In this document: piece by piece, positions 46,581-64,000 of the stretch
How the letters are laid out: every line of letters starts with the position of its first letter
How positions within the stretch are numbered: the first letter of the stretch is position 1
Assembly: GCA_963758525.1 (NCBI GenBank)
Contig: CAVWVQ010000003.1
Span: forward strand, 4,448,001 to 4,512,000
Direction of reading: 5' to 3'
DNA from: an uncultured Phycisphaerales bacterium
GTDB taxonomy: Bacteria > Planctomycetota > Phycisphaerae > Tepidisphaerales > Tepidisphaeraceae
Length of the DNA stretch: 64,000 bases
The notes under the pieces: generated by a model
Told to the model about the DNA's origin: nothing
Database searches by the model: none
What the model saw: the letters and a program-made list of their open reading frames with translations, nothing else
Translations under genes and position numbers: made by a program

Positions 46581-48378
46581 TTATCGGTCGCTGGCTCTTC
46601 GGCGTGCGCCGGTGTCAATTGACGCCGGGCCTGCGGTCATGCCGCTGACTACGGCGATGACTGGATCGAAAGGGTCCGGCGATCGCTCCATGCAGGTCTG
46701 CGCCAGTTGCAGCAATCTCCGCGAGGGAAGATCGGCCGTTCTGTCCGACGCGCCGGAGCTGACCAGCGGAGCAAGAACCTGACATGCCTCCCGCCATTGT
46801 TTCGATTCATACAGTGCCAACGCCTTCTCGTATGCCTCACGGCGGGCGAGCCATTCGGGCTGCGCGCGCTCCCCATGAAATTCGTAGAGCATCATTGGCA
46901 CGCTCACGTCGGCGAGACGCACCTGGCCGAGCCGGCGGGTGTAGAGTGACGCCGGCAACTGCTGGCACGTGGAGGCGGTGATCAGCAGCGGGATGCCAAG
47001 CTTCTTGGTGGCGTCCTGCACCCGGCTGGCAGCGTTGACGGTGTGCCCGTGCGGGCCGTATTTGAACTTGCGCGTGCTGCCGGTATTGCCGACCTGCGCC
47101 GAACCGGAATTGATGCCGATGCCCAAAATAAGGGGACCGGTTTCGGCGGCCCAACGCTCGTTGAGTCCGGGAAGTTCGCCGATCATGCTGAGCGCGGCCT
47201 GGCAGGCGCAGAGCGCGTGGTCGCTTTGCTTCGCGGGCGCGTTCCACATCGCCATGATCCCGTCGCCGGAGTAGTCGACGATGACGCCGCCGTAGGCGAC
47301 GATCTGGTTGGACAGCGCCTCCATCATGTCGCGAATCAGCCGGCAGGTTTTCTCCGCGCCGAGGCGCTGCGAGAGGGCGGTGAAGCCGCGAAGGTCGCTG
47401 AAGAGCAGCGTGACCTCTTCGGAACGCGCTTCGAGCAGATTGGGATCACGCTCCAGTTCGCTCACCAGTTCCGGGGAGAAGAACTGCTCGAACTGAACCC
47501 GCGTGCGGACGGCGGCGGCCCGGGCCAGATTCGCGCCGACGGCGGCGGAAAGAAGCTGAACCAGTTGCGCCTCCATTGGGTCGATCCCTCGCGCCGCCAG
47601 GCCGGCGCCGCGCGACCCGTACAGAACGCCGATAATTTCGTCGTGGAGTCCGAAGACGGGCGACGCCACCGCCGCCTGCACGTCCTCCAGGCTCGCGGCC
47701 TGCTGCCGGAGTTGCTTCAGGTCCTCGAAGAATGTCTGCCGTCGCGTCGTGACATGCTTGACCAGCGTGCGGCTGTAGCGGAATTCAACGTCGTCGGCTT
47801 TTCTCGCCGTGCCGATCATGGCCCACTCATCATTTTTCAAAAGCAGTACCAATCCAAGGTCCATACCGATCAGATCGACGAGCGCGCGGGCGACGCGCGT
47901 ATAGAACTCAGAAGACCCGGCCGGCATGCGATCCAGCTCGATGACCGTGTGCATCCACTCGGCCAGCCGATCGGAAGCGGGGACGTGAAGCGTGCGGGGG
48001 ATGGGGACAAATTCCTGCGTTTCCTGAAGATGCGTCGTCGAGGCAACGGCTGAGTCGACAGGCGCATCCGCCGGCTCGATGATAAGTTTCACCTGGCCGA
48101 TTGACAGCTCAGCCGGCAGCGTCAACTCGCGCGATTGGCCCGCGCAAGGGCCCCGGATGCCACGAGACCGACGGGCATGCGCTGACTCAGATTCTCCGCT
48201 CTTAGAAGGCCGCCGCCCAGTTCCAGAATTCGCAGGTGATCCTGCGAAACCGTGGCATCGTCGATCCGGCACCGTCTGGCCTCGCGTGCGCCCTGCGCCC
48301 GAACTCCAGCGGGCCGCTCGGATGCTTGAACTCCTGACGCGGAGCACTGCCGGTGATCACCTGAACTCGCAATGCCAC
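46581..48378 (-). CDS. FHA-GAF-class III nucleotide cyclase; N-terminal FHA region frameshifted
   Basis: LEFGR..IDDATVSQDH (FHA, across frames); GAF SRTLV..VASPV; LFSDLRGFT, DYSGDG, NTGS..KYGPHGHTVNAASR. Confidence 0.85.
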
Positions 48379-48804: not shown

Positions 48805-51800
48805 GTGAAACACGTAAATCGGCCGTTTCTTCGATATCTGTTCCCGGCCCGGGCCGCAAAGCTGGCGATCCTCTGGGCGGCCGGGGTGGCCGCGGCCGCA
48901 TTGTCGCTGGTGATGCCGTTCGTGATCGGACGGCTCACCCATCTTTGCAGCGTTGGCGGGAAGGGGAATGCGCCGCATGTGGACATGGGCGTCGTCACCA
49001 AATGGATCCTGATCCTGTTCGGTTCGCAACTGGCGTTTGCAGGGGTCAACTACTGGAGAAAATGGATTGAGGGCCGCCTGCAGGAGGAGGTGGCGCGGCA
49101 TCTCATGCTCGACACATTCGCGCGGGTCGTCCGCTTTTCGGCCGATTTTTTTCGCGACCGGGAAGTGGAGAAAATCAATTCGCGCGTGCTGGATGACGCC
49201 AACGCGGTGGGACGTGTGCTGGTGAACGCGGCGGTCACCGCGCCGGTGGCGGTGATGAGCATGGTCATCTTCGGCGCGGTGATGATGTCGCACAATTTGT
49301 TCCTCGGCGCCTGCATGATCCCGCTCGCGCTGCTCAGCCGCTATTACACGTTTTTTGATCCAACGGTGCAGCGGATCAGCAAACGGACGCGTGAGGTGTG
49401 GGACACCATCCGCGCACAGGGGAGCGAAGTGGTGACCCTGACGCCGGAATTGCGGGGACATTACGCGTTTGACTATGGCCTGGCAGGTCTGAAGCGATCC
49501 TTCGATCGCTATCGAGTCGTGCTGCAGGACATGGCGCAAATTCAGGCGTTGTTCCAGGCAATCACGCCGCTGGTGGGTGTCGTGCAGTACGGCACGCTCT
49601 TCTGGCTGGGGGCGGCACTCTGCTCCGACCATTCGGCGCTCCTGAAGATCGCGCGGCCGATGGACTGGGGCGGCGTGATCGAATTCATGCTGATCGTGCA
49701 GCTCTTTCAGAAGCCGTCAATGGAACTGGGGCTGTTTCTCATCGAATGGCGGATGACGCGGGAGAATGTGCGGCGAGTGGCCGAATATTTCGAGCAGCCG
49801 CTGGTGTTCGATCGCGCCAAGGCGAGCCTGCCGTTGCCGGACAGATCTGACGTGGCGTATGACGACGTGAGCGTCTGGACCGGCTCCGGGTCGAAGATTC
49901 TCAACGGTGTGAAGCTGACGATTGCTGCAGGCGAGCACGTCGCGTTTTGCGGTCCGGCAGGATGCGGCAAGACGACCGCGATGCAACTGGTGGTGCGCGG
50001 GGTTGAACCCTCGTCGGGACGGCTGCGGCTCGCGGGGCAGGGCATCGACGAATACGACATTCTGCGGATCGCTCAACGTGTTGCGTTTGTCGCGCAGAAG
50101 CCGCTGCTGATGGATGCGAGTCTTCGCAACAACATCCTGCTGGGATTGCGTCGGGAGACAGAAGGGTGCTTGCATGATGACGACGGGCCGCTTGATGTCT
50201 CGCGTTTGTCGGGCGCGAAGGACGCGGCCGGCCTCGATGCTGAGCTGCTGCGGATCATCCGGCTGGTAGCCCTGGAAGACGACGTGCTTCGCAAATGCCT
50301 GGATAACCCCGCGCCGGCCGGCACTCATGCCGACGCACTTGGGTCGCACGGAAGCGCGCTGAAAAAAGCGGTCGCCGAAGCGCTGGGGAACGCCGGCAGC
50401 GCCGAGATGATCGCATTCGACGTCGACGGGTGGATTCCCGGAACGCTGCGCGACAATCTGCTGGGGCCCGGGGCCGCTGCGGACGACGACTGGCGGGCGA
50501 TGAACGTGCTGGCCGGGGATGATTTTCTCGAAGAGCTCATTCACCTCGGAACCCGGCGGCTTCGCGCGGAACGGTTGCTGGCCGTCAAAGTGGCTCAGCA
50601 GGCGCCGGCGCTGCTGCAGTTTCTTCCGACCTATCTCGACGCCGGCGGACGCGTGGAAATGGAGGATCTTTCGTCCGCGAAAGTGGGCGAACTCTCGCTG
50701 TCGGTGCGGCAGACGTTGCTGGGCGTCGCGCTAGGCGTCGATGCGGAAGTCGCGCTCTCGCACCTCCGCGACGAGACGGCGTCGGCTCCATTCCGAGACC
50801 GGGCGATCGCTGCGCAAAACGCTCATCGCCGGTGAGGCAGTCTTCCGGCAGCGGTGGGATGACTTGATGTCGCGCCGTGACGTGGAAGGGCTGCCGGTTC
50901 GGGAAAATCTGCTGGGAGGTCGTGTGAACGCGCGCGTGCTCGGCGCGGCGGAGCGAGTCGATGCGGTGCTGCGCCGGGTTCTGGAACAATCGGGGCTGTT
51001 GCCGGCTGCGCTGCTGATGGGACTCGAATTTCGCGTCGGAGAAGGAGGCAAGTACCTGTCCGGCGGCCAACGGCAGAAGGTGAGCATCGCGCGGGCCATC
51101 GTCAAGAATCCGAGCATCCTCCTGATGGACGAGGCAACCGCGAGCCTCGATGAGTCGTCGCAGGCCAGGGTGGTGGAAATGATCCGCGACGGATTCAAGG
51201 GCAAAACCGTCGTTTCGATCTCGCACCGTCTCTCGACCATCCGCGACTTCGACAAGGTGGTGGTGCTGGACCGCGGTGAAATCGCCCAGTCTGGAACGTA
51301 TCAGGATCTTGCGGTGGCCGACGGCGTCTTCCGTGAGCTGGTCAATCAGGAGCGCGGAATTGCGTCCCAGCCGGGGGCGAAGCAGACGACGGCAGCGCCC
51401 TCGCTGCAAGATCTGCAGCGGCAACTGGCGCTCAGCGACGTCTTCGGCTCGATGAACGAGGAGCAATTGACGTTTCTCGCCCGCGCCGCGCGCGTCGTGG
51501 ACTGCCGGCCCGGCGAGGTGCTGTTCCGCCGGGGGGACAGCGGCGCGGAGCTCTATCTCATTCTGGAAGGAAGCATGGCTTTCTCCACGGATCGTCCGGC
51601 GGCCTCCGAGGGTGAAGCAGCGTCAGACGCTCATCCGCCGGAACCTCCAACTGTCGTTGCCACCTACGGCCCGGGAAGGGTCTTCGGGGAGTTGGCGCTG
51701 TTCGGCCACGGCTTAAGAACATTGACGGCCCGCGCCGGCGCCGCGACCCGCCTGATGGCCCTGGGCCGGGAAGATCTCATTCGCCTGATGACCGCGGATC

Positions 51801-51916
51801 ATCACATCGCCATCGGGCTGCTCAGCGCGATCTCAAGGCGCATGATTGAGGCTGACGAACGCCGATTTGCGGTTCCGCAGTCAAGCTCGGCGCGGCCCGC
51901 GCCGTCATCGCAGTAG
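48805..51916 (+). CDS. Type IV ABC exporter with split NBD (large insertion) and C-terminal cNMP-binding domain; frameshift near 50815
   Basis: TMD; GPAGCGKT; about 300 aa later LSGGQRQKVSIARA, MDEATASLD, ISHRL; LFRRGD..LYLILEG, FGELALF..RT. Confidence 0.85.
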
Positions 51917-52056: not shown

Positions 52057-52140
52057 TGTAAGGGTTAGACAACCCCTCCGTAACACCGGGTGAGAAGCAG
52101 ATCGCTTCTCACGCTGAAGGAAACAGCGAACAGTTTCCAA
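52057..52140 (+). promoter_or_regulatory. Candidate ECF-type promoter (TGTAAG-N16-CGTA) plus conserved two-hairpin 5' leader, copy 1
   Basis: Boxes and spacing are conserved with 52939-53021 while the spacer sequence differs. Confidence 0.65.
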
Positions 52141-52166
52141 AAGACACGGTGCCAGGGAGCGAAATC

Positions 52167-52439
52167 ATGTTTACCAGCCTGCACAATCGAATCACGAAAA
52201 TTCTGGTCGTCGCCATCGGACCGGCCTGCCTCGGCCTGCTGCTGATGAGCCACAGGTTTGCAACAGTGGACGCGCAAGTCGACAGCTTCCAGGACAGCGG
52301 ATCGGCCAACAGCGTGGCCGCTTCCGAAAGCGCCGCCAACGATGACGGCCCGGGACTTGGCGGCGGGTATGCCTCGATCGATCCCGGCCCCATCGCTCTC
52401 GATGGTCCCGGCGGCAGCACCCCGTATCTCATCTTTTAA
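52167..52439 (+). CDS. Secreted 90-aa peptide precursor-like protein with DGPG..Y repeats
   Basis: GGAG RBS; hydrophobic N-terminus; DDGPGLGGGYAS and DGPGGSTPY; paralog of 53067..53459. Confidence 0.75.
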   Translation: MFTSLHNRITKILVVAIGPACLGLLLMSHRFATVDAQVDSFQDSGSANSVAASESAANDDGPGLGGGYASIDPGPIALDGPGGSTPYLIF

Positions 52440-52646
52440 GTGGGTGCCGAGAAGCGGATGACCCAGCAACTCAACAATCCAACAACGTCGCCATACACAC
52501 CACTCCGCTCTGGCGGAGTGGTGTGTTTGCGCATCACCAACAATCGGCGATACGAATCGGCGGGTCCAACATCCAAACACGCGGTCGCTTATTTGACACG
52601 CTGGACCATGTCCTGGGTGCGGGAGACTTTCGGCAGGCTCTCTTTT

Positions 52647-52777
52647 CCCCTCCCCTGGTACTCCGAGGGAGGGTTAGGGTGGGGGCCCGGCTGTGTAAGG
52701 GCGCGGAGAGCCGATGGAGCGCTTGCGTACAACACAGCCCCCACCCCAGCCCTCCCCCGGAGTACCAGGGGAGGGGG
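52647..52777. repeat. Inverted pair of REP-like family A
   Basis: cccctcccctggtactccgagggagggttagggtgggg ... ccccaccccagccctcccccggagtaccaggggagggg. Confidence 0.85.
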
Positions 52778-52938
52778 AAAGACCAGCGTTGCTGAAAGTG
52801 TCACGCACCCTTGTCTTCCCCACGTCCTTTCGAGCAGAAAGAGAGATTGCCGCGACGAAACTCAAAAAATGCAAAAAAACACCCTTGATCCCGAAGCGGC
52901 AAGCCGGGGAACCCGCTCCGGAATTTCTTGAATTGATC

Positions 52939-53021
52939 TGTAAGGCTTGGTGATCGGCCGCGTAGCACCGGGTGAGAAGCAGATCGCTTCCGACGCCCAC
53001 GGAAACGGCGAAAAGTTTCCA
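52939..53021 (+). promoter_or_regulatory. Candidate ECF-type promoter plus conserved leader, copy 2
   Basis: tgtaag-N16-cgtagc accgggtgagaagcagatcgcttc...ggaaacggcgaaaagtttcc. Confidence 0.65.
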
Positions 53022-53066
53022 GCAATCGAACGGGTTCTTCAAACCCGAAATACCAAGGAGCCTCTC

Positions 53067-53459
53067 ATGTTTTCCATCCTGAGCAATCGCATCCATCGCG
53101 TTTTGGCCGCTGCCGTCGTACCGGCCGGCCTCGGACTGGTTCTGGTGGGCAACGGTTTCGCGCAGGCCCATTCGCAACTCGACGCTTTCCACGCTGACGG
53201 CCCCGGCGGTTCGGGCTACTGCCTGACAGCACATCTCGCCGCCGACGACGATGGCCCCGGCCTCGGCGGCGGGTATGCGTCGCTCGTTCGCAAGCCCCCG
53301 GTTGCCCGTGATGACGATGGCCCGGGTCTGGGCGGCGGATATGCCGCTTCCCTCCGTTTGAGCCATGAGATCGTGGCGGACAGCGGTCCCGGCAACGACG
53401 GTTACGGCAAGCCTATGTCCGACGGTCCCGGGAGCAACGTGCCATACGCTCTTGCTTGA
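53067..53459 (+). CDS. Secreted 130-aa multi-core peptide precursor-like protein (five GPG..Y units)
   Basis: AAGGAG RBS; signal-like N-terminus ending AQA; DGPGGSGY, DDDGPGLGGGY x2, DSGPGNDGY, DGPGSNVPY. Confidence 0.78.
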   Translation: MFSILSNRIHRVLAAAVVPAGLGLVLVGNGFAQAHSQLDAFHADGPGGSGYCLTAHLAADDDGPGLGGGYASLVRKPPVARDDDGPGLGGGYAASLRLSHEIVADSGPGNDGYGKPMSDGPGSNVPYALA

Positions 53460-53569
53460 ACGACCTTCGCCAAGCTTCAATCTCGCAGTCACAGACAACT
53501 CCGCCCTCGGCGGAGTTGTCTTGATGCGCGACTGCGTCATCCCTCGTTCAAGCGCAGCCGATGAGCGCA

Positions 53570-53604
53570 CAGAAGCCGCGGATGTACATCCGCGGCTCCC
53601 GTAA
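53570..53604. repeat. Palindrome copy 2
   Basis: cagaagccgcggatgtacatccgcggctcccgtaa. Confidence 0.8.
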
Positions 53605-53675
53605 TGCCTGAGCGGGTGATCCAACGCGGATCGGCGTCGGCGACGCCGACTACATGAGAATCGGCCGCTGATGGT

Positions 53676-56600
53676 TTAGTTCGGATTGCCGAGATAAATG
53701 AACGGGGCCCAGAAGAACGGCTCGGGATATTCTTGGCGGAGCTGCTTTCGCGCGGCGGTGAACGCGGCAAGCTTCGATGGACAACCGGGAGACTGCAGAT
53801 TGCGATAGAAATCCTCCATCAGCCTGGCGGTGCTCTCATCCTGCACTTCCCACTCACTGGCGACGACCGCCGGACAACCGGCGTACCAGAAGCCCCAGGG
53901 AAGGCCGAAGACGCCTTCATCGGTGACGGCGTTGCCTTTGCCGCTATCAATTCCCTGAGAATCGCAGGCGCTGAGCACCACCAGCTCCGTGCCGGAAAGC
54001 TTGCCGCCCCAATGATCAAACAAATCCTCCAGCGTCAGCAGCCCGGTATCCTGTGCGGTGACCACCCGCGGCTGGGTCAGGATAATGCTGCTGTAAATCG
54101 CGTCCTGTCCGGACCTGGCCAGGCCGTGCGTGGCCAGGTGAAGATACCGCGTCCCGACTGCGGCCTCCGCCAGTCGCTTTGCGGTGGCGTCTTCGCCCAA
54201 GAGGACCAGGACCGAATCGTCGTGCCCGGGGGAATATCCGCGGCCCGTGAGCTTCTCGTAGATTCCCATGATTTCTTTGCGCGTTCCGGGAAGCGGCGAG
54301 AGCGCGCCATAGCCGCCGAGGCCGGCATTTCTGGTCTGGCCTGACGGCGCTGCAGACCGACCCAGGTCTCTGGCTTCCCGCTGCAGCACCGGGTCGCCCA
54401 ACAGAACGGCCTGGTGCGTGTAATGCTTCGGCGCGCTGGAGGCCGGTGGCGCGCAGAGCTTGAGCAGCGCGGTGGCGGAAGCGCCGTAACAAATCGCCGG
54501 CCCCTGATCGAGCCAGTAACGGCAATCTTTTGCATCGGGGCTGGCGGGGTTCTGGACGATCAAGGTTTCCAGCGGCAATCCGTTCATCCCCGCATCGGGA
54601 ACGACATAAATCAACTGGTCGTCCTGGATCTGTTGCCAGATCGACGAAGGCATGAGCCGGGACCAGAGTTCGTACCCCTTGCGGGTCATGTCGTCAGCCG
54701 GGGCTTTGGTTGCACCGTCTTCGACGAGCTTTGCCCCGCGCGTGAATGTCTGGTTGTGCGCAACCACCGACTGCTGATAGTCCACGATGCGCCGCTCCAG
54801 GGCCGTGCCGGACAACACGGTTTTGCCATCCGGCTCGGTCAGCAGCGCGCCGGTGATGGGCTGGCCGGCGGGAGGGATCAGGATGACCATGATGTCGCGA
54901 TCGGTAATCGAATACATCAGCAGATGCTGGCGCGGCTTCAGAAGCGCCTGCATCTGCAACGCCGATGCAGGCTCTGCAAACGTCGTTGCGCCGGCGACAT
55001 TGAACAATCGGCGATGCGCGGCGGCGTAGCGCGCGCAGGCGTCATCCAGCTTCGGCTGCAGCAGATCGATCTGAGAATTGCCATCGTCATTGTTCAAGGA
55101 GCGCGCGAAATTGATCTGCGAGGTGAGCTCGCGAACCTGTTCATCGGCATCGGATGTCGCCTTACCGGCCTGCTCGAGCTGCGCCAGCAGTTGCGTATCG
55201 TGGGCTTCCCGCGCCTGCGCTTCGAGCGGCGCCAGCAGATCTCCGCCGTTGCGGCGTTCGGCGCGCTCCAGGACATCCAGAAGACTTCGAGCCCGTCCGC
55301 GATCGAGGTACTCCGCAGCCCGGTCCGGATGCCCCAGCATCAGCTCCACCCGCACGATCGCCACGGGTGCGTCGCAGTCGTCCTGCGCATCGATGAACTT
55401 CATCCGATCCTGGTCGTCGCCACCCAGAATCGCCCGGGCCCGCTCGAAAGCGCCGATCGATTTCTCGTACGCAGCCTCGGCGTCTGCGAGTTGGTTCAGC
55501 GCCAGCAGGCAATCTCCCAGATTCGAGCAGTAGCGATAGAGATCGGGATCGCTCAGACGCTCGGCAAGTGCCACAGCCTTCTGGAACATCGGCAGCGCCT
55601 CCTGCTTTTTTCCCAGCGCGGAGAGACACGAGCCGAGTTTTGCCATGTTCCACGCGACAATCGGATGGTCGCGGCCCTTATAGATGCGCTCCTGCATTTG
55701 GAGCGCTTCGCGGCAGAAGGGAAGCGCCTCGCCAGGATGGTCCAGCGACATGAGACATCCGCCAAGCAGAGCGAGATTGATCGCAATATCCGGACGATCC
55801 TGATTCCCGCTCAACCGGCGGCGCATCGCCAATGCCGCCTGATACATCGGCAGCGCCTCGGCCGATCGCCCCAGATTATCCAGCGAGAGCGCCACGTTGC
55901 TCGTGGCAGTCGCAACATCCGGATGGTCCTGGTCCTTGTAGAGGCGCTTCCACATTTCCAGCGCCGACTGCTGGGTCGACAGCGCGTCGGCGAAGCGGCC
56001 GAGAGACGTGAAACAGGAAGCCTCGTTGTTGAGGGACTCGGCGATGTCGGGGTGATCCATGCCGTTGTACATCCGCCGTCTCATTTCCAGTGCCGCTTGA
56101 TGATCGGGCAACGCCTCGGCGCAGCGTCCCAAATCGTCGAGGCAACTGGCGATGTTCGCCAGAGCGGTCGCCACGTCCGGGGAGTCCTGACCCTTGTGGA
56201 TGCGGTCGAGCATATCGTGCGACAACTGGAAGTCGGCCAGCGCTTCCTGATGGCGGCCCAGAAATGCCAGGCAGGTCGCCAGATCGTTCAACGATGAGGC
56301 AACATCGGTATCGTCCTTCCCCTGGTAGATCCGCCGGCGCATCTCCAGCGCCGCCTGAAACATCGGCAGCGCTTCGTTGCCGCGTCCCAGCGACTCCATG
56401 CACCCAGCGACATTGTCCATCACCACGGCGAGGTCGGCGCTGTCCTGGTTCTTGAAAATCCGGCGAGTCGATTCCAGTGCAGACTGATATACAACCAGCG
56501 CATCGGAGTCGCGTCCCAGCGCGCTGAGACACTTGGCGAGGTTGTTCATGCTCGCCACTACATCGATCTGATCGTCCTGCTGATAGATGCGCCGGCGCAT

Positions 56601-57802
56601 CTCCAGCGTCGCCTGGAAGACCTTGAGCGCTTCGTCGTAGCGCCCAGCGCGAAGAGGCAGAACGCAACGCTATTCTGGGTCGTGGCCACATCGGCGTCGT
56701 CCGCCCCTTTGTTCAGTCGCTGCTTCATCTGTAGTGCGGCCTGGAGGTTGGTCAGCGCATCCGCCGGCCGGCCCAGATCCTGCAGGCACCCGCCCAGGTT
56801 GCAGTAGGCCTCGGCGACGTCCGCGTCGTCCTGCCCCTTGTGCATCCGCCCGCGCATTTCCAAAGCCTTCTGGTAGAGCGGCAAGGCGTCCTCGTTACGG
56901 TCGAGGGCCGCCAGGCGCCGGGCGACGCTGGTCATGCTCCAGGCGACGTCTGGCGAATCCTCACCCTTTGCCAGGCGCTGGCGCATCTCCAGCGCGGCTT
57001 GGTCGAGCGGTAATGCCTCGTCGTTGCGGCCCAGATTCGCCAGGCAATTGGCCAGATTTGCCATCGCGGTCGCCAGATCCTCGTCGTCCTCGTTCTTGTG
57101 AAGGCGCAGGCAGATCTCGGTTGCCCGTTTGAACTTCGGAAGGGCGTCCGCATCGCGACCAAGTTGTGCCAGCGCAAATCCCTCGCCCGTGAGGCAGGCG
57201 GCGGCTTCGGTTGTTTCACCGGTTCCCTGTGCTTTCAGATAGATCTCGGATGCCGACTGATATTTCGCCAGGGCATCTTCCGGTTTGCCGGCAGACCGGT
57301 CGTCCAACGCGGCTGAGAGAAGTTCGTTGGCATGCGCAAGCGGGTCCGAAGCCGGAGCCGAGGCTGGCGCGGTGGTCGATTGATCTGCTAAAGCGATCGA
57401 CGGATTCCATGCCGCGACGCAGATGCACGCGATCGTGCAAAGGAGTCCGCTTACGACTGACCTGCGGAGGCGATTCGCGGAACCGCCTCGGGTCCCTTCT
57501 CCCGGTACTCCCGGAGAGGGATAGGGTGAGGGTGTTTTCGAGCACCGGGGACGCTCAGAATTCCAAATCACCCTCACCCCAACCCTCTCCCGGGGTACCG
57601 GGAGAGGGGGCTGGAAGGCGACTCGCTGCGATGGGGCGTGATACCTGCACGACCTCGCAAGGTCAGCAACTGCCGCAATGTCTTTCCAGCGAATCATGAT
57701 TATCAGTAACGCGGAATTCATCCCGTTGTTTTTATGCCGCAACATTTCGCCACGTCGCGCGGGATGAATCCCGCGCCACGCGGCGATCTCAATTCGGATC
57801 AC
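53676..57802 (-). CDS. Signal-peptide TPR-CHAT (caspase-like) protease X; frameshift near 56640; start uncertain
   Basis: LLCTIACICVAAWNPSIALA signal; many ~43-aa TPRs (ALPMYQAALEMRRR..DHPD); YLHLATHG, LVVLSACDS, ASEWEVQD, FWAPFIYLG. Confidence 0.88.
57495..57609. repeat. Inverted pair of REP-like family A in the 5' region of CHAT gene X
   Basis: ccttctcccggtactcccggagagggatagggtgaggg ... ccctcaccccaaccctctcccggggtaccgggagaggg. Confidence 0.85.
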
Positions 57803-58520
57803 CCAGATAGATGAACGGCGCCCAGAAAAACGGCTCGGGGTAATCCAGCTTCAACTGCTTGCGGGCGGCGGTGAACGCCGAGAGCTTGTTGGTTCCCGGC
57901 GCGGCCCGCAGATCGGCGTAAAACTTTTGCATCAACTCGGCAGTGCTCGCATCCTGCACTTCCCACAAACTGGCGACCACCGCGGGACTGCCGGCGTACA
58001 TGAATCCCCAGGGCAATCCGAAGACGCCTTCGCCGCCGCGGGCGTTGGTTCCCTGGGCGTCGAGCCCCTGCGAATCGCAGGCGCTGAGCACCACGAGTTC
58101 GGTTCCGTCCAACCGGCCCCACCAGTGATCGAACAAATCCTGCAGCGTGAGCAGGCCGGTATCCTGCGGCGTGATGACCAGCGGTTGGCTCAAGACGACG
58201 CTGCTGTAGATCGCGTTGGCGCCCGGCTCCACCAGGCCGTGGGTGGCCAGGTGGAGGTAACGCGTTCCCTTTGCAGCCTCGGCGAGGCGCTGACCGGTGG
58301 CGTCTTCGCCCAGGAGCACCATCACCGGATCGTCGGCGTGCTGCGCGTAGGCCTTGCCGGTGAGCACCTGGTAAATCCCCTGCACTTCCCGGCGGGTGCC
58401 GGGAAGGGGAGTCAGCGCGCCGTAGCGCGTGAGGCTCGCGTCGCGCAGCGCGACCGAACTCGGCTCTGGTTTTTGCGGAGACGGCGTCAGTTGCGCCGCC
58501 AACTCCGGAGTCATGTCTTT
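57782..58520. repeat. About 740-bp near-identical duplication of the CHAT catalytic 3' end (copy at 61772-62510)
   Basis: Offset 3990; about a dozen mismatches by eye; encoded protein identical from ELAAQLTPSP to the stop. Confidence 0.92.
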
Positions 58521-61500
58521 CAGCTCCACGCCCGGCGCTGTGTCCAGCGAGAGTTCGCGCTCGACCATCTGTCCATCGAGCCAGAACTTGAGCCTGGGAG
58601 TTTGACTGAGCTTTCCGTGAAAGCGCAGCAGTTCGAGTTTATCCACTGCGCTGTCGAACGAATCCTTGGAGACCACATTCACCGGGCCATACGCGACGAC
58701 AATTGCGCCGATCCGCAGGCCGATCGAGGCGGCGGTCGATCCGGGCTGCACGCTGGTGACCATCGCGCCCGATGATGGCGCGGGCACGCGCTGCTGATCG
58801 GCCGGATTGCGCTGCAACACGGGATCGCCCAGCAGCACCGCCTCGCGGGCGTAGGTTTTCTGGCCGCGATCCGGCTCCTGACGACGAAGCTCCAGCAGCG
58901 CCGCCGCTGACGGTCCGTAGCAAAGAAGCGGGCCGGCGTCGAGCCAGTAGGTATTGTCTTTGGCGCTGGAAGCGTGCATAGCGGAAGTTTGCGGCCTTTG
59001 GACGACCAGCATTTCTATCGGCAGGCCGCTCATTGCCGAGTCCGGAACCACGTAAACAATCTGGTCGTCCTTGATCTGGTTCCAGACTTGCTCGGGCATC
59101 AACTCGCGGAAGAGTTCATATCCCTCGGCTGGGATGTCGGATTGGGGGCGAGTTGCAGGCTCGGTCTGCGCGATCCTGAGGCCGCGCACCGAATCCAGAC
59201 CATGCTGCACCACGGCGCGGCGGTAGTTGCCGATCAACCCACCAATCCGGCTGCCCGATAGCGGCGTCCTCCCATCTGATTGGACCAGGGACATACCAAT
59301 GATCGGCTGACCGGAAGGGGGAACGACCAGGAGGACCGCGTCATAACGTGTAATCGAATACATCAGAAGATGCTGATGCGGCTGCAGCAGAGATTGAATC
59401 TGCACCGAAGTGGTTGCCTCGGTGAACGTCGTCCGACCGGCAAGGTTGAATTTACGGCGATGGGCGTCGGCGTATTGCTGGCATGCCAGGTTCAACTGCG
59501 GCTGGAGCTGTTTGATTTGCGCGAGTCCTTCGTCACTGTTGAGCGATCGCGCGTGATTGATCTGCGAAGTCAACTGCCGAACCTGGTCGTCGGCAACATT
59601 CAAGGCGGTTCTGGCTTCGGCGATGCGCTGCAATTCGCCAGTATCGTTGGCGAGCCTGGCTTTCTTCTCCAGAGGATCGAGCAGATCGCCGTTTGTGAGC
59701 CGCTCTCCCCGTTCGAGGATATCGAGCAGGCTCTTGGCGCGTCCGCGATCCAGGTATTCCGCCGCGGAGTCCGCGTGCCCCAATGCGAGCTGCGCAGGAC
59801 CATCCCGCTGAACGGGTCTATGTCGCGATTGGCGCTCATGAAACCCATGCGGTCCTGATCGTCGCCCCCCAGCGTCGTTCTGGCTTGTTCCAAGGCGTCG
59901 ATCGATTCCTCGTACGCCTTGGCGGCGCCCGCGAAATCGTGCGAGTAGAAGAGCATATCTCCCAGAACGCAGCAGTCGCGGAACAGATCAGGGCTCCCGA
60001 GTCGCTCGGCCATCTGAACGCAGGCGCGGGACAGCGGAATTGCCTCCTTCGTGCGCCGCAGGATCGCCAGCTCATACGCGACGTCGTTCATGCTCGAGAC
60101 AATTTCGGGATGGTCCTGATCGCCATAGATGCGACGCCGCATTTCCAGCGCCGCCTGATGAAACGGCAGCGCGTCTGCGAAGCGGCCGAGATCACACAGA
60201 CAACTTCCAACGGAATTGAAGCTGTCAGCCAACTCCGGGTGATTCTGGCCTTTGTAGATGCGCCCGCGCATCTGAAACGCGGCCAGATGCATCGGCAGCG
60301 CCTGTGCCGAACGGCCCAGGCTGTCGAGGCACGCCGCGACGCTGTCCATGCTCTCGGCGACATCGGAGGAATCCTTCCCTTCCGCAAGCCGCTGCCGCAT
60401 CCGCAGGGCGGCCTGGAGCATCGGCAGCGATTCAGCCTCGCGTCCCAGGGCGCCGATGCACTGCGCGACGTTGCTCATGTCCGTCGCCAGATCCCGATGA
60501 TCTTTGCCGTTCTGCAGGCGCTGCTCCATTTGCATCGCGGCTTCGTACATCGGAAGCGCTTCGGCGCTGCGACCCAGGTTATCCAGGCAGGAGGCCAGGT
60601 CATTGAGGCTTGCGGCGATATCGAACGCGTCACGCCCTCCGAAAGTCCGCCGCCTCATGTCCAGAACGGCGCGGAACATCGGCAGCGCCTCGGCGCTGCG
60701 CCCAGATCGTCAAGACAGCCGGCAACGTCCTCCTCGGTCTGCGCCACATCCCAAAAATCCACGCCTTTGTGAAGGCGTCTGCGCATTTCAAGCTCCGCCT
60801 GATACACAGGCAGAGCCTCAGCGCTGCGGCCCAGATTCTTCAAGCAGGTGGCAACATCGTCCTGGCTCTGCGCCAGATCGAATTGGTCGCGACCGCCACA
60901 AAGACGGCGTTTCATTTCAAACGCGTCCTGGAACGGCTTGAGCGCCTCGTCATATCGCTCCAGCGCGGTCAGACACTTTCCAAGCGTCTGGAATTCGTTG
61001 GCGATCGAAGCGTCATCCTTTCCCTTGAGAATGCGCTGCTGCATCGCCACGCCGTCCTGGCAATACTGCAAAGCTTCCTCGTCGCGGTTCAGACTGTGGA
61101 GGCACCAGCCGAAGTTGCTCATGGCAAGTCCGAACTCCAGGCGGTCCTGCTTTTGGTAGAGCCGCTGGCACATCTCCAATGCCGCCGCGAATCTTGGCAG
61201 CGACTCATCGAGCCGGTTCAATCGCGCGAGGCACCATGCCTCGCCGGTCAGACAGCGGGACACGTCAGGGTTGTCCTGCTTGCCATAGACCTTCTGATAG
61301 AGAGCGAGCGCTGACTGATCCTCATTGAACGCGCTATCGAACTTGCCCATCGTCCACGCCGCGTTGGCCGATGCCCAATGGGCGCGGGCCTGCGCGAGTG
61401 CTGCGTCGCGGTCGGTTGGGGCGGGCTGGGTTGATGAAGCGGAGGTTCCCTCATCTGCTGATGCAATCGCCGGCAGCGGCAACTGGATGCCGATGCAGGC

Positions 61501-61782
61501 GATCATGCAAAGGAGCACGCTTGCGAGAAATTGTTGAACTCTGTTTAGCCGCGCCGCGCAACGAAGCGTGTCCAGCGGCGCAGTCTGACGGGCGCCGTTC
61601 GGAGCCAAGCCCTCCCCCGGAGTACCAGTGGACGGAGAAAGAGTTGTCGGGGCCGTAGTAGTTACCAGCGCCCGAAAGATCGGGCACGCATGCGGCGTAA
61701 TTCCGTGCTTGAATGACGTAATCTTCATCCAATGCTCATGGAACGAATGGTTCCCAATTCGCCAGCGCGTTGGCGATCTCAA
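57789..61782 (-). CDS. Signal-peptide TPR-CHAT protease Y with PDZ-like insertion; frameshifts near 60695 and 59790; start uncertain
   Basis: VLLCMIACIGIQLPLPAIASA signal; TPRs; GAMVTSVQPGSTAASIGLRIGAIVV (PDZ); HLATHG, LSACDS. Confidence 0.88.
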
Positions 61783-64000
61783 TTCGGATCACCCAGATAG
61801 ATGAACGGCGCCCAGAAAAACGGCTCGGGGTAATCCAGCTTCAACTGCTTGCGGGCGGCGGTGAACGCCGAGAGCTTGTTGGTTCCCGGCGCTGCCCGCA
61901 GATCGGCGTAAAACTTTTGCATCAGCTCGGCAGTGCTCGCATCCTGCACTTCCCACAAACTGGCGACCACCGCGGGGCTGCCGGCGTACATGAATCCCCA
62001 GGGCAATCCGAAGACGCCTTCGCCGCCGCGGGCGTTGGTTCCCTGGGCGTCGAGCCCCTGCGAATCGCAGGCGCTGAGCACCACGAGCTCGGTTCCATCC
62101 AACCGGCCCCACCAGTGATCGAACAAATCCTGCAGCGTGAGCAGGCCGGTATCCTGCGGAGTGATGACCAGCGGCTGACTCAAGACGACGCTGCTGTAGA
62201 TCGCGTTGGCGCCCGGCTCCACCAGGCCGTGGGTGGCCAGGTGGAGGTAACGCGTTCCCTTTGCAGCCTCGGCGAGGCGCTGGCCGGTGGCGTCTTCGCC
62301 CAGGAGCACCATCACCGGATCGTCGGCGTGCTGCGCGTAGGCCTTGCCGGTGAGCACCTGGTAAATCCCCTGCACTTCCCGGCGGGTGCCGGGAAGGGGA
62401 GTCAGCGCGCCGTAGCGCGTGAGGCTCGCATCGCGCAGCGCGACCGAACTCGGCTCTGGTTTTTGCGGAGACGGCGTCAGTTGCGCCGCCAACTCCGGAC
62501 TCATGTCCTTCAGCTCGACTCCCGGGCTCGACTCAATCGGCAGATCACGCTCCAGCATCTGCCCCTCGAGCCAGAACTTCAGCTTTGGAGTTTGGTCGAG
62601 CTTTCCGTGAAAATGAAGCAGCGCGAGCTTGTCAACTGCCGTATCGAACTGGTCCTTCGAGCCAACTTCGATCGACCCGTAGCCCACGATCACTGCGCCG
62701 CGCGGAGTCCGATTCCCTCCCCGGTCGAACCCGCCTGCACGCGCGTTACCAGCGCGCCGGACTGCGGCGCCGGCAGACGCGGTCGGGCATCATCATTCCG
62801 CTGCAGGACAGGATCGCCGAGCAACACCGCTTCGTGCGCGTAGGTTCTTCCCTCCCGATTGGTTTCCTGTCTGCGCAGCTCGAGCAATGCGGCCGCGGAC
62901 GGGCCGTAGCAGAGCAGCGGGCCGTGGTCGAGCCAGTAAACGTTATCCCTGGCGTCCGCGGTTCTCGGCTTTTGCGTGATCAGCATCTCCAGCGGCAGCC
63001 CGCTCATCGACGCGTCGGGCACCACGTACACCAGGGAGTCGCGCTGAATCTCCCGCCAGACGGCGTCGGGCAAGAGCTGGCGGAACAGTTGATACCCTTC
63101 ATCGGAGGTGTCTTGCGTCGGATGCGTTGTCGCTTCGGTCTCGGCCAATCGCACTCCGCGAATCAGATTCATTCCGCGCTGCACGACCGTCCTGCGATAA
63201 CTTTGAATCAGTCGCTGAAGCGATTCTCCCGAAAGGCGCGTCTTGCCGTCGGCTTCCGTCAGATACATTCCGCTGATCGTCCCTCCCGGCGGCGGAATCA
63301 GCAGCACGACGGCGCTTCGAGGGGTGATCGAATACATCAGCAGATGCTGCCCCGGCTGCACGAGAGATTGAATCTGAAGCGACGTCGTTGCCTCGGTAAA
63401 TGTCGTCCTTCCGGCGAGGTTGAATTCCTGCCGGTGAGCGTTGGCATACTCCTGCCAGGCGGTGTTCAGTTTCGGCTGCAACTCTCTGATATCTTGCAGC
63501 CCCTGGGCGTTATTCATCGCGCGGGCATGGTTAATGCGCGAGGTGAGCTGCCGCACCTGATCCTCCGCCGCCGCCAGTGCCGTTCGATCGCCGAGGATCA
63601 GCTTCAGTTGCTGCTTGTCGTTCGTAAGCCTGGCCTTCTTCTCCAGGGGATCGAGCAGATCGCCATCGGAAAGGCGTTCCCCGCGCTCGAGAATATCGAG
63701 CAGGCTCTTGGCTCGTCCGCGATCGAGATACTCCGCGGCGGTGTCCGCGTGCCCCAGTTCGAGTTGCGCCCGGACCATGCCGCCAAACGGATCGCGTGAC
63801 TGCATGGTGGAACTCATGAATCCCATCCGGTCCTGATCGTCGCCGCCCATGGTCGCGCGGAACTGCTCGAGCGAATCGATCGATTCCCCGAATTCTTTGG
63901 CCGCTTCGGCTGCGTGACCGGTCATCAGGAGGATGACTCCCAGATCGTTGCAGTAGTTGAATAAGTCAGGACTTCTGAGCCGCTCGGCCATCGCATTCGC
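61779..64000 (-). CDS. TPR-CHAT protease Z with PDZ-like insertion (5' end beyond window; frameshift near 62700)
   Basis: AAEYLDRGRAKSLLD, YVVPDASMSGLPLE, GALVTRVQAGSTGEGIGLR, HLATHG, LSACDS. Confidence 0.88.

Follow-up and report, generated by a model that had tools for sequence, protein, structure and literature searches.

Introduction

RRNPP systems (Rap-Phr, PlcR-PapR, AimR-AimP) consist of a small exported pro-peptide encoded beside a tetratricopeptide repeat (TPR) partner, and they feed back on their own gene. The peptides are strain-specific, are re-imported by Opp permease and are bound by a cytoplasmic TPR receptor. Here we describe a peptide locus in a 64,000-nucleotide stretch of DNA from an uncultured Phycisphaerales bacterium of the family Tepidisphaeraceae (GenBank assembly GCA_963758525.1, contig CAVWVQ010000003.1, positions 4,448,001 to 4,512,000 of the forward strand). 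This stretch is called the window (G000:C3:4448001-4512000, where G000 is the genome, 6.47 Mb in size). Two small genes encode precursors with repeated DGPGxGGGY cores, and a promoter-like motif ties them to a nearby cassette of an extracytoplasmic function (ECF) sigma factor, a membrane Ser/Thr kinase and three TPR-CHAT proteins. The precursor genes are real and conserved and make up a family not described before; we tentatively propose that they may act as an exported signal.

Several described systems share parts of this arrangement, as far as the accessible parts of the sources go. In the planctomycete group ECF62 the gene at position +1 encodes a protein kinase that has a single membrane helix and, at its N-terminus, a putative zinc finger, and there is no separate anti-sigma gene (PMC7826278, PMC8999054); its promoter motif is described as not conserved (PMC7826278). 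In EcfP (ECF43) the DAED motif is replaced by a phosphorylatable motif (PMC8999054). In DdvA-DdvS of Myxococcus xanthus an ECF sigma factor occurs together with a zinc-finger anti-sigma domain and with a periplasmic TPR-CHAT whose proposed role is the sensing of a protein signal (PMC11506125). The Craspase system of type III-E CRISPR (Csx29-Csx30-RpoE) is cytoplasmic and RNA-activated and cuts after Leu or Met (PMC9825189, PMC11127173). For kinase-associated planctomycete ECFs and for exported TPR-CHAT proteins, the accessible parts of the literature covered describe no signal, promoter or substrate.

Peptide precursor genes and their promoter motif

The two precursor genes and the elements around them are listed below.

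52057..52082, + strand, ECF-type promoter motif TGTAAG-N16-CGTA of gene A
52084..52145, + strand, conserved leader of gene A with two predicted hairpins, 80% identical to 52966-53027
52167..52439, + strand, peptide precursor A, 90 amino acids (aa), with a purine-rich ribosome-binding site and a signal-like hydrophobic N-terminus
52341-52370 and 52401-52427, + strand, the precursor A cores DDGPGLGGGY and DGPGGSTPY
52641..52782, no strand assigned, inverted repeat between the peptide genes resembling repetitive extragenic palindromes (REP-like), with 46-nt arms that are 91% complementary
52939..52964, + strand, ECF-type promoter motif of gene B
52966..53027, + strand, conserved two-hairpin leader of gene B
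53067..53459, + strand, peptide precursor B, 130 aa, with a purine-rich ribosome-binding site and a signal-like hydrophobic N-terminus

Precursor B has five cores (DGPGGSGY, DDDGPGLGGGY twice, DSGPGNDGY and DGPGSNVPY). DDGPGLGGGYA is found three times in total, once in A and twice in B. In the whole genome, only the frames of genes A and B match the pattern D[GS]PG-x2-5-Y at least two times. Export of the precursors was judged by hydropathy, and the hydrophobic N-termini are predicted signals. A preliminary description of this DNA, made from the sequence alone, had reported two small genes with ribosome-binding sites, hydrophobic N-termini and seven cores, all of which we see at the same places. 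It had also taken the small open reading frames for real genes, which is borne out by homologous full-length genes conserved elsewhere, and it knew of no named family for them. The last point agrees with our searches, in which the precursor gave no match in Pfam, NCBIfam, PDB sequences or the literature; the best ESM Atlas score was 0.78, to unnamed clusters. The precursor had 25 matches at E up to 10 among 171 candidates, 22 of which were aligned, and the closest named relatives are from Tepidisphaeraceae. A related-locus search with a single precursor as query found nothing. The literature search, whose coverage leaves out most subscription journals and the supplements of all papers except PMC7826278, found the motif spellings in no paper. 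It also returned no relevant work on secreted repeat peptides with ECF factors, on exported TPR-CHAT with ECF factors, or on CHAT-ECF-kinase combinations in Planctomycetes. To our knowledge, the look-alikes RaxX/PSY, CEP/PIP, spider-silk GPGGY, RTX and 2A match at three to four residues at most.

The unit extends from about 46.6 kb in the window to about 5 kb beyond its end. The order on the minus strand is ECF sigma, kinase, and TPR-CHAT c, b and a; the operon starts beyond the window and converges on the peptide genes. The sigma and kinase genes, the shared promoter motif and the cross-phylum spread of the core had no place in the preliminary description. The features beyond the window are as follows.

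G000:C3:4516025-4515426, - strand (as TPR-CHAT), ECF sigma factor
G000:C3:4515249-4513518, - strand (as TPR-CHAT), membrane Ser/Thr kinase (Hanks type)
G000:C3:4516586-4517176, divergent from the sigma and kinase genes, small exported protein preceded by two promoter motifs

Genes A and B have a common 85-nt upstream stretch with TGTAAG-N16-CGTA at its start. The genome contains four copies of this motif, all within 16.5 kb at the peptide locus, compared with about 0.9 expected genome-wide; 14 other spacings between TGTAAG and CGTA gave 0-3 copies each. A matrix built from 10 sites of other genomes ranks the four G000 sites first (25.5-33.8 bits; the next site scores 15.2). Two copies precede the peptide genes, the other two are divergent from the sigma gene and stand before the small exported protein, and none is directed into the sigma-kinase-CHAT operon. 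The motif is present upstream of all complete precursors of the Tepidisphaeraceae-type family that have upstream DNA (L012, L020, L022, L025, L035, L044, L049, L065, L073 and L133). TGTAAG was not found in the available supplement text of PMC7826278, which excludes the logos. The same promoter motif or the same cassette is also associated with small exported proteins sharing the signal peptide of the precursors (L020:10586-11600, L022:16813-19806 and L135:2537-5901) and, in these L020, L022 and L135 regions, with tandem YbjN/CesT-like lipoproteins carrying an S-x-R-D-L segment.

The leader follows directly behind the promoter motif and is likewise found in L020, L022, L049, L065, L073 and L133. 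The consensus fold of 11 leaders shows little covariation and a conserved GGCGAA loop, and no Rfam family matches at gathering score. The two-hairpin leader could be an RNA control element. The arms of the REP-like repeat have 27 to 90 look-alikes genome-wide at 2 to 4 mismatches and are not specific to the peptide system. Another REP-like copy lies upstream of the sigma gene. An Rfam search on the REP hairpins returned sub-threshold microRNA-like matches only.

Linkage to sigma-kinase pairs in two planctomycete classes

One sample of 121 family genomes was used. The precursor is present in three of them (G000, G372 and G1108, from three genera), and the same three carry TPR-CHAT at 65% identity or more and the sigma factor at 78% identity or more. 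Weak TPR-CHAT matches were obtained in two more genomes and sigma matches at 34-43% identity in three more. The two congeners of G000 in this sample gave no match to precursor, sigma or TPR-CHAT. A fourth genome, G800, also has the combination. The arrangement of the genes varies. In L020 the precursor stands upstream of sigma and diverges from it, in L022 two CHAT genes flank it, in L049 and G000 the orientation is convergent, and in L133 the precursor belongs to an array that includes exported S8 and C14 proteases. Among 14 small-precursor loci, CHAT is found in five (L020 and L044 are one locus; L056 is degenerate) and one is itself a chance match, the rest having too short a flank on the side that matters. 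The cassette is gained and lost as a block, a pattern that in so small a number of genomes does not reveal a mechanism.

A Pkinase gene is at +1 of sigma in G000, L020, L065 and L136. The G000 sigma retains HDAEDL (DAED motif). The N-terminal part of the kinase contains HxxxCxxC, to which Pfam gave no match at E up to 1; the zinc finger is putative. One moderately hydrophobic 19-mer (mean 1.58) precedes an outer domain resembling DUF4384 (ESM Atlas 0.94, 204/256 features, 10/10 best matches). An intact orthologous kinase has 574 aa and is separate from the TPR-CHAT gene, which encodes 1264 aa with its own signal-like N-terminus.

A relaxed pattern matched 3 of 401 genomes of the phylum, and the reversed control matched none in the genomes listed. 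Two of the three matched genomes were new and, with one further genome, represent a second planctomycete class. There the precursor was found in 3 of 40 genomes (plus one weak match), and the same 3 of 40 carry a different ECF sigma, which is not orthologous to the G000 sigma (49 aligned residues). The layout in this class begins with a transporter of major facilitator superfamily type with a cyclic nucleotide-binding (cNMP) domain. Next comes a precursor that has a signal peptide and 1-7 DGPGxGGGY cores, and opposite to it are a kinase that looks soluble and the ECF sigma. These precursors have a different common upstream motif (three sequences, by eye). The precursor-ECF link in the second class is an independent repeat of the G000-type linkage. 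A gene combining kinase, membrane and TPR parts is linked in two of the three second-class genomes. An exported transglutaminase-like protein is common to L022 and L107 (28%, E 9e-57) and was not found in G000.

The preliminary description regarded CHAT as the defining partner of the peptide. Within Tepidisphaeraceae the linkage stands, with the same 3 of 121 genomes and differing gene orders. It does not extend further: the second class keeps the ECF-kinase pair without linked CHAT, and the Acidobacteriota loci described below are CHAT-free. No CHAT was detected within about 10 kb of the precursor in G424 and G560 (loci L107 and L108); the nearest CHAT is about 204 kb away in G560 and on other contigs in G424, and the G781 contig is only 6.3 kb long. 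It was concluded that CHAT is not a constant partner of the peptide.

Proposed signalling loop

The reading we favor, tentatively and at a little short of even chances, is that the DGPGxGGGY precursors are an exported signal for which a TPR or kinase ectodomain of the same cassette serves as reader. Sigma, kinase and the three TPR-CHAT genes lie on one strand and lack the motif, which is found ahead of the two peptide genes and of a further gene for a small exported protein. Judging by the form and position of the motif, we infer that the sigma factor of the cassette would read TGTAAG-N16-CGTA, and because of this presumed recognition the peptides would be the output and the proteases the input side. 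Since the promoter-like motif is common to both peptide genes and the sigma cassette, it is likely that the sigma factor has the peptides as its output and that they are produced under its control as a signal for export. The kinase, with its putative zinc-finger anti-sigma N-terminus, Hanks domain, one membrane helix and DUF4384-like ectodomain, would restrain sigma until an outside cue arrives. The precursor would exit by Sec, and the nonapeptide would be freed by spacer trimming or displayed as an array. It would then bind the TPR groove of TPR-CHAT or the kinase ectodomain, closing an autoinducer-like feedback loop. TPR-CHAT is one candidate for the trimming protease; cassettes of relatives carry exported S8 and C14 proteases, and the second class works without linked CHAT.

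The core motif across phyla

An exact DNA pattern for DDGPGLGGGY matched at 20 loci in genomes and 59 in metagenomes. Of these loci, 64 encode one or the other of two unrelated protein types, each about 400 aa long, and the 15 named records are Terracidiphilus or Acidobacteriota. Profile searches returned 46, 113 and 13 proteins. In the collection of 144 proteins, 140 contain 462 GPGxGGGY cores; the proteins were gathered by means of the motif, and the counts describe this collection, not an unbiased sample. The residue before the core is D in 426 and E in 21 cases (acidic in 447 of 462), and position x is A (343), L (77), N (16), V (13), S (12) or T (1). The residue after the core and the spacers vary, the spacers being mostly 2-13 aa. 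The core has 94 different DNA spellings with all synonymous codons used, and because of these it is taken to be conserved at the protein level; the pattern fixes the amino acids, so replacement changes are unmeasurable. A signal-like N-terminus was seen by hydropathy in 62 proteins.

The named sources are Planctomycetota, Acidobacteriota, Vulcanimicrobiota/Eremiobacterota, Kofleriaceae and Hyphomonadaceae, of which we take Kofleriaceae to be Myxococcota and Hyphomonadaceae to be Alphaproteobacteria. The count of five phyla rests on the named minority of records, and names of metagenome-assembled genomes can be wrong. Neighborhoods were read in Planctomycetota and Acidobacteriota. An alignment search in 251 genomes (class of G796) and 301 genomes (phylum of G797) found nothing and missed the motif-bearing G797 itself, and is uninformative. 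Thirteen viral matches and L014, L016 and L080 were rejected as single chance matches.

The core-bearing proteins outside the small precursors are diverse. A very acidic Terracidiphilus protein of 400 aa with 1-3 cores is encoded directly behind a zinc-ribbon/M48 peptidase gene (L004:9329-12205 and 35 similar; 36 of the 38 loci with room), and the HExxH of that peptidase reads REMGH in 32 of 32 readable copies. An exported Terracidiphilus protein of 430 aa and no known family has a C-terminal DDGPGLGGGY-NPGPGGSAGY array and a closing two-Cys domain (L013:9152-10450 and L067:1221-2534). A large group (P0036, P0037, P0043, P0109 and about 60 similar, one named Vulcanimicrobiota) has 130-240 aa, 2-6 DGPGAGGGY cores and no signal peptide; several of its members carry a D-x-V-x-I-S segment, which may correspond to the one in flagellar export substrates. 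Core arrays also occur in an SCO1 lipoprotein just before its conserved His, in papain-like peptidase tails, in a SecA N-extension and in two-domain Hyphomonadaceae proteins (P0132-P0135 and P0137-P0144). The core is further found in an HD protein.

Several observations weigh against the signalling loop. Transcription, export, cleavage and binding are each inferred, and status as a sigma output does not show feedback. Perfect co-occurrence is expected of any block-moving cassette, and it rests here on 3-4 genomes in the family and 3 in the second class. TGTAAG-N16-CGTA also drives small exported proteins that lack the peptide motif. In the second class, the kinase-membrane-TPR gene occurs in four genomes without the peptide as well, and the kinase next to sigma looks soluble. 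In this assembly, frameshifts disrupt the G000 kinase gene and each of the three TPR-CHAT genes. No hydrophobic N-terminus is seen in 76 of 138 core-bearing proteins, cores are grafted into the SCO1 loop, the papain-like tails and the SecA extension, and two unrelated Terracidiphilus proteins carry the core with no ECF-kinase pair or CHAT nearby. A private feedback signal leaves all of these cores unexplained.

Alternatively, the nonapeptide could be a portable tag or self-sufficient functional unit and the small proteins could be envelope-response effectors without back-signalling, which is possible and on balance unlikely. Such a tag could serve a widespread modifying enzyme or protease as its site, form a turn that binds metal or a surface, or supply a Tyr motif for cross-linking. 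It would suit the tandem occurrence of the core on unrelated proteins, with and without signal peptides, in five named phyla, and also two Terracidiphilus genomes, each of which has the core at two separate loci and neither an ECF-kinase pair nor CHAT next to them. Against a tag, no modifying enzyme is common to the neighborhoods read, and twice in Planctomycetota a minimal precursor (signal peptide plus cores) is tied to a dedicated sigma-kinase pair with an outside domain of peptide-binding type. The signalling loop can also be widened into a cross-phylum form, in which DGPGxGGGY would be a peptide signal exported or grafted by unrelated bacteria (Planctomycetota, Acidobacteriota, Vulcanimicrobiota, Myxococcota and Alphaproteobacteria) and read by different ECF-kinase modules via outside TPR or DUF4384 domains, with the exported caspase-like proteases as receptors or maturases in Tepidisphaeraceae. 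This extended form is doubtful.

TPR-CHAT genes and other genes of the cassette

The three TPR-CHAT genes of the window are as follows.

53676..57600, - strand, TPR-CHAT a, with kinesin-light-chain-type 43-residue TPRs and CHAT; dyad His at 54128 and Cys at 53966; frameshift near 56650; start codon uncertain
57789..61730, - strand, TPR-CHAT b, with a PDZ-like insertion in CHAT; dyad at 58241 and 58079; frameshifts near 60680 and 59790
61779..64000, - strand, TPR-CHAT c, 3' part; dyad at 62231 and 62069; frameshift near 62690

The start of TPR-CHAT c is about 1.3 kb beyond the window end. The CHAT domains score 131-148 bits against a Pfam cut-off of 24, and each has HLATHG and LSACDS; Pfam and motif reading thus agree with the preliminary description that at least three TPR-CHAT genes with intact His and Cys dyads face the peptide genes. 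The same description placed signal peptides on the two visible 5' ends. The hydrophobic segments are indeed present, but the nearest in-frame start is tens of residues ahead of them, and a REP-like repeat intervenes. TPR-CHAT c and orthologues have clean N-termini of Sec type (by eye and hydropathy). REP-like copies at 57494-57609 and 61605-61643 are in frame in possible N-terminal extensions of TPR-CHAT a and b. Copies b and c, unlike copy a, have a PDZ-like insertion. Over their final 300 nt (57782-58081 versus 61772-62071) the two are 99% identical, while their TPR parts differ; this reflects recent duplication or gene conversion.

Apart from TPR-CHAT a, b and c, the kinase, ABC transporter and cyclase genes are also frameshifted in this assembly. 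Orthologues of TPR-CHAT elsewhere are intact, with 1264-1404 aa. One short-read contig (depth 2.4) points to an extra base at 59796, the site of a frame change in TPR-CHAT b; this short-read support covers one break only. Assembly error is the likelier cause of the frameshifts, for which the extra base is weak support, and at no single break is this cause established with confidence.

Among solved structures, the TPRs are nearest to those of kinesin light chain, which bind short Tyr-plus-acidic peptides according to the accessible part of the source (PMC6214655). An AlphaFold model of TPR-CHAT a has a predicted local distance difference test score below 50 over the catalytic half, and the S1 pocket, whose basic character gives Asp-specific caspases their P1-Asp specificity, is unreadable in it. 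A complex prediction for residues 60-974 of TPR-CHAT a with a two-core peptide scored 0.00, which is no answer, and was used neither way.

The preliminary description proposed that CHAT cuts the precursor at Asp|Gly. We consider it distinctly unlikely that the exported TPR-CHAT proteins are dedicated maturases that release GPGxGGGY in this way or zymogens activated by the peptide. The intact His-Cys dyads, the restriction of both precursor and close TPR-CHAT to the same three genomes out of 121, the acidic residue before 447 of 462 cores and the predicted export of both partners would suit such a role. For Asp|Gly cleavage by CHAT there is no support other than sequence. There is no CHAT within about 10 kb in L107 and L108, nor in the 64 acidobacterial-type loci (by tblastn; many of these loci are short), and the variants PGPG, NPGPG and DPGPG have no Asp-Gly bond. 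Csx29 prefers Leu or Met at P1 and needs substrate structure too, as far as the accessible part of the source goes (PMC9825189). G372 has two further TPR-CHAT genes and G000 has one, a fourth exported copy about 2 Mb away at G000:C3:2428907-2432407, with no precursor gene nearby. Cassettes of some relatives, not of all, carry S8, C14 and transglutaminase-like exported proteases.

Two accessory genes lie on the other side of the peptide genes.

46581..48347, - strand, adenylate/guanylate cyclase (Pfam Guanylate_cyc); frameshift near the 5' end
48805..51916, + strand, ABC transporter with a C-terminal cNMP-binding domain (Pfam ABC_membrane, ABC_tran and cNMP_binding); frameshift near 50800

A cyclase orthologue (72% identical) is beside the peptide gene in L022, and another is found in L133. 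The ABC-cNMP gene adjoins the peptide gene in L022, L058 and L133, and its orthologue occurs in two of the three peptide-bearing family genomes. A second ABC-cNMP transporter (42%) stands alone at G000:C1:414086-417160. No Opp permease is encoded among the scanned neighbor genes (the genome was not searched for Opp). A lipoprotein, an S8 subtilase and an exported C14 caspase at G000:C3:5009298-5014822 are orthologous to genes of the L133 cassette (55-61%); they lie about 490 kb from the G000 peptide locus and have no promoter motif.

The preliminary description further suggested a system resembling ribosomally synthesized and post-translationally modified peptides (RiPPs). In that case DGPGxGGGY would be the conserved sequence that is recognized, and the products would be the variable spacers, on the model of cyanobactin precursors. 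The constant motif does alternate with variable segments, and an ABC transporter occurs in related cassettes, as does an S8 protease that is exported. Against this, many spacers span just 2-4 residues, the N-terminus is Sec-type, and Pfam and NCBIfam revealed no tailoring enzyme or leader-binding domain among the neighbors scanned, which makes a RiPP-like system very improbable. Chance, in the form of Gly-rich low-complexity repeats in spurious reading frames, might be invoked for a Gly-rich motif in a GC-rich genome where single matches do occur, and it is already refuted by conservation (full-length homologues with a common signal peptide, ribosome-binding site and promoter, all synonymous codons in use, and a pattern in 3 of 401 phylum genomes versus none listed for the reversed control), the same synonymous variation ruling out a mobile DNA repeat read in frame.

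Comparison with known systems

On present evidence the system is real and undescribed and may be peptide signalling; the cross-phylum motif may be more than that. Candidates open to test at this locus are a sharp promoter motif, a regulon of two to four genes and a nine-residue peptide amenable to synthesis. A nearly invariant nonapeptide in five named phyla, grafted onto unrelated proteins, points under any of the readings to an undescribed receptor, enzyme or chemistry. If the cross-phylum form of the signal is true, Gram-negative environmental bacteria would share the peptide as an interspecies language, and a kinase-controlled planctomycete ECF group would have its first ligand.

None of the known systems compared shares its full set of defining features with the G000 system. 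ECF62 is alike in the kinase at +1 with its one membrane helix and in the lack of a separate anti-sigma gene, and the G000 layout fits the ECF62 description in these respects; HxxxCxxC of the G000 kinase is a candidate for the zinc finger. The outer domain is WD40 in ECF62 and DUF4384-like in the G000 kinase. The G000 cassette has exported TPR-CHAT genes after the kinase and an evident conserved promoter motif, whereas the motif of ECF62 is called not conserved and no peptide target is described in the accessible parts of the sources. The substitution in EcfP of ECF43 is absent from the G000 sigma, which keeps HDAEDL. ECF54 of Actinobacteria is likewise an ECF sigma, with CHAT-TPR and subtilase genes near it (PMC7826278); it belongs to another phylum, has no kinase, and the accessible part of that source mentions no such peptide.

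DdvA-DdvS resembles the G000 system in its ECF sigma and periplasmic TPR-CHAT, and also in its zinc-finger anti-sigma domain, which is putative in the G000 kinase. According to the accessible part of the source, DdvA is one fused membrane protein whose active site is incomplete and which controls CBASS-CRISPR genes (PMC11506125). In G000, by contrast, TPR-CHAT is separate and exported, a kinase stands in between, and the promoter has small exported proteins as its targets. Craspase likewise ties a TPR-CHAT protease to a sigma factor, but it is cytoplasmic and RNA-activated and has no secreted peptide. From multi-core RiPPs of the cyanobactin type the system differs in that no tailoring or macrocyclizing enzyme is found among the neighbors scanned.

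Like RRNPP systems, the G000 locus has a small exported pro-peptide gene (export by hydropathy) beside a TPR protein. The RRNPP receptor is cytoplasmic, whereas the G000 TPR is predicted to be outside, its orthologues having Sec-type signal-like starts. RRNPP peptides are strain-specific, while DGPGxGGGY is nearly invariant across phyla, and the G000 output is an ECF sigma factor with a Hanks kinase.

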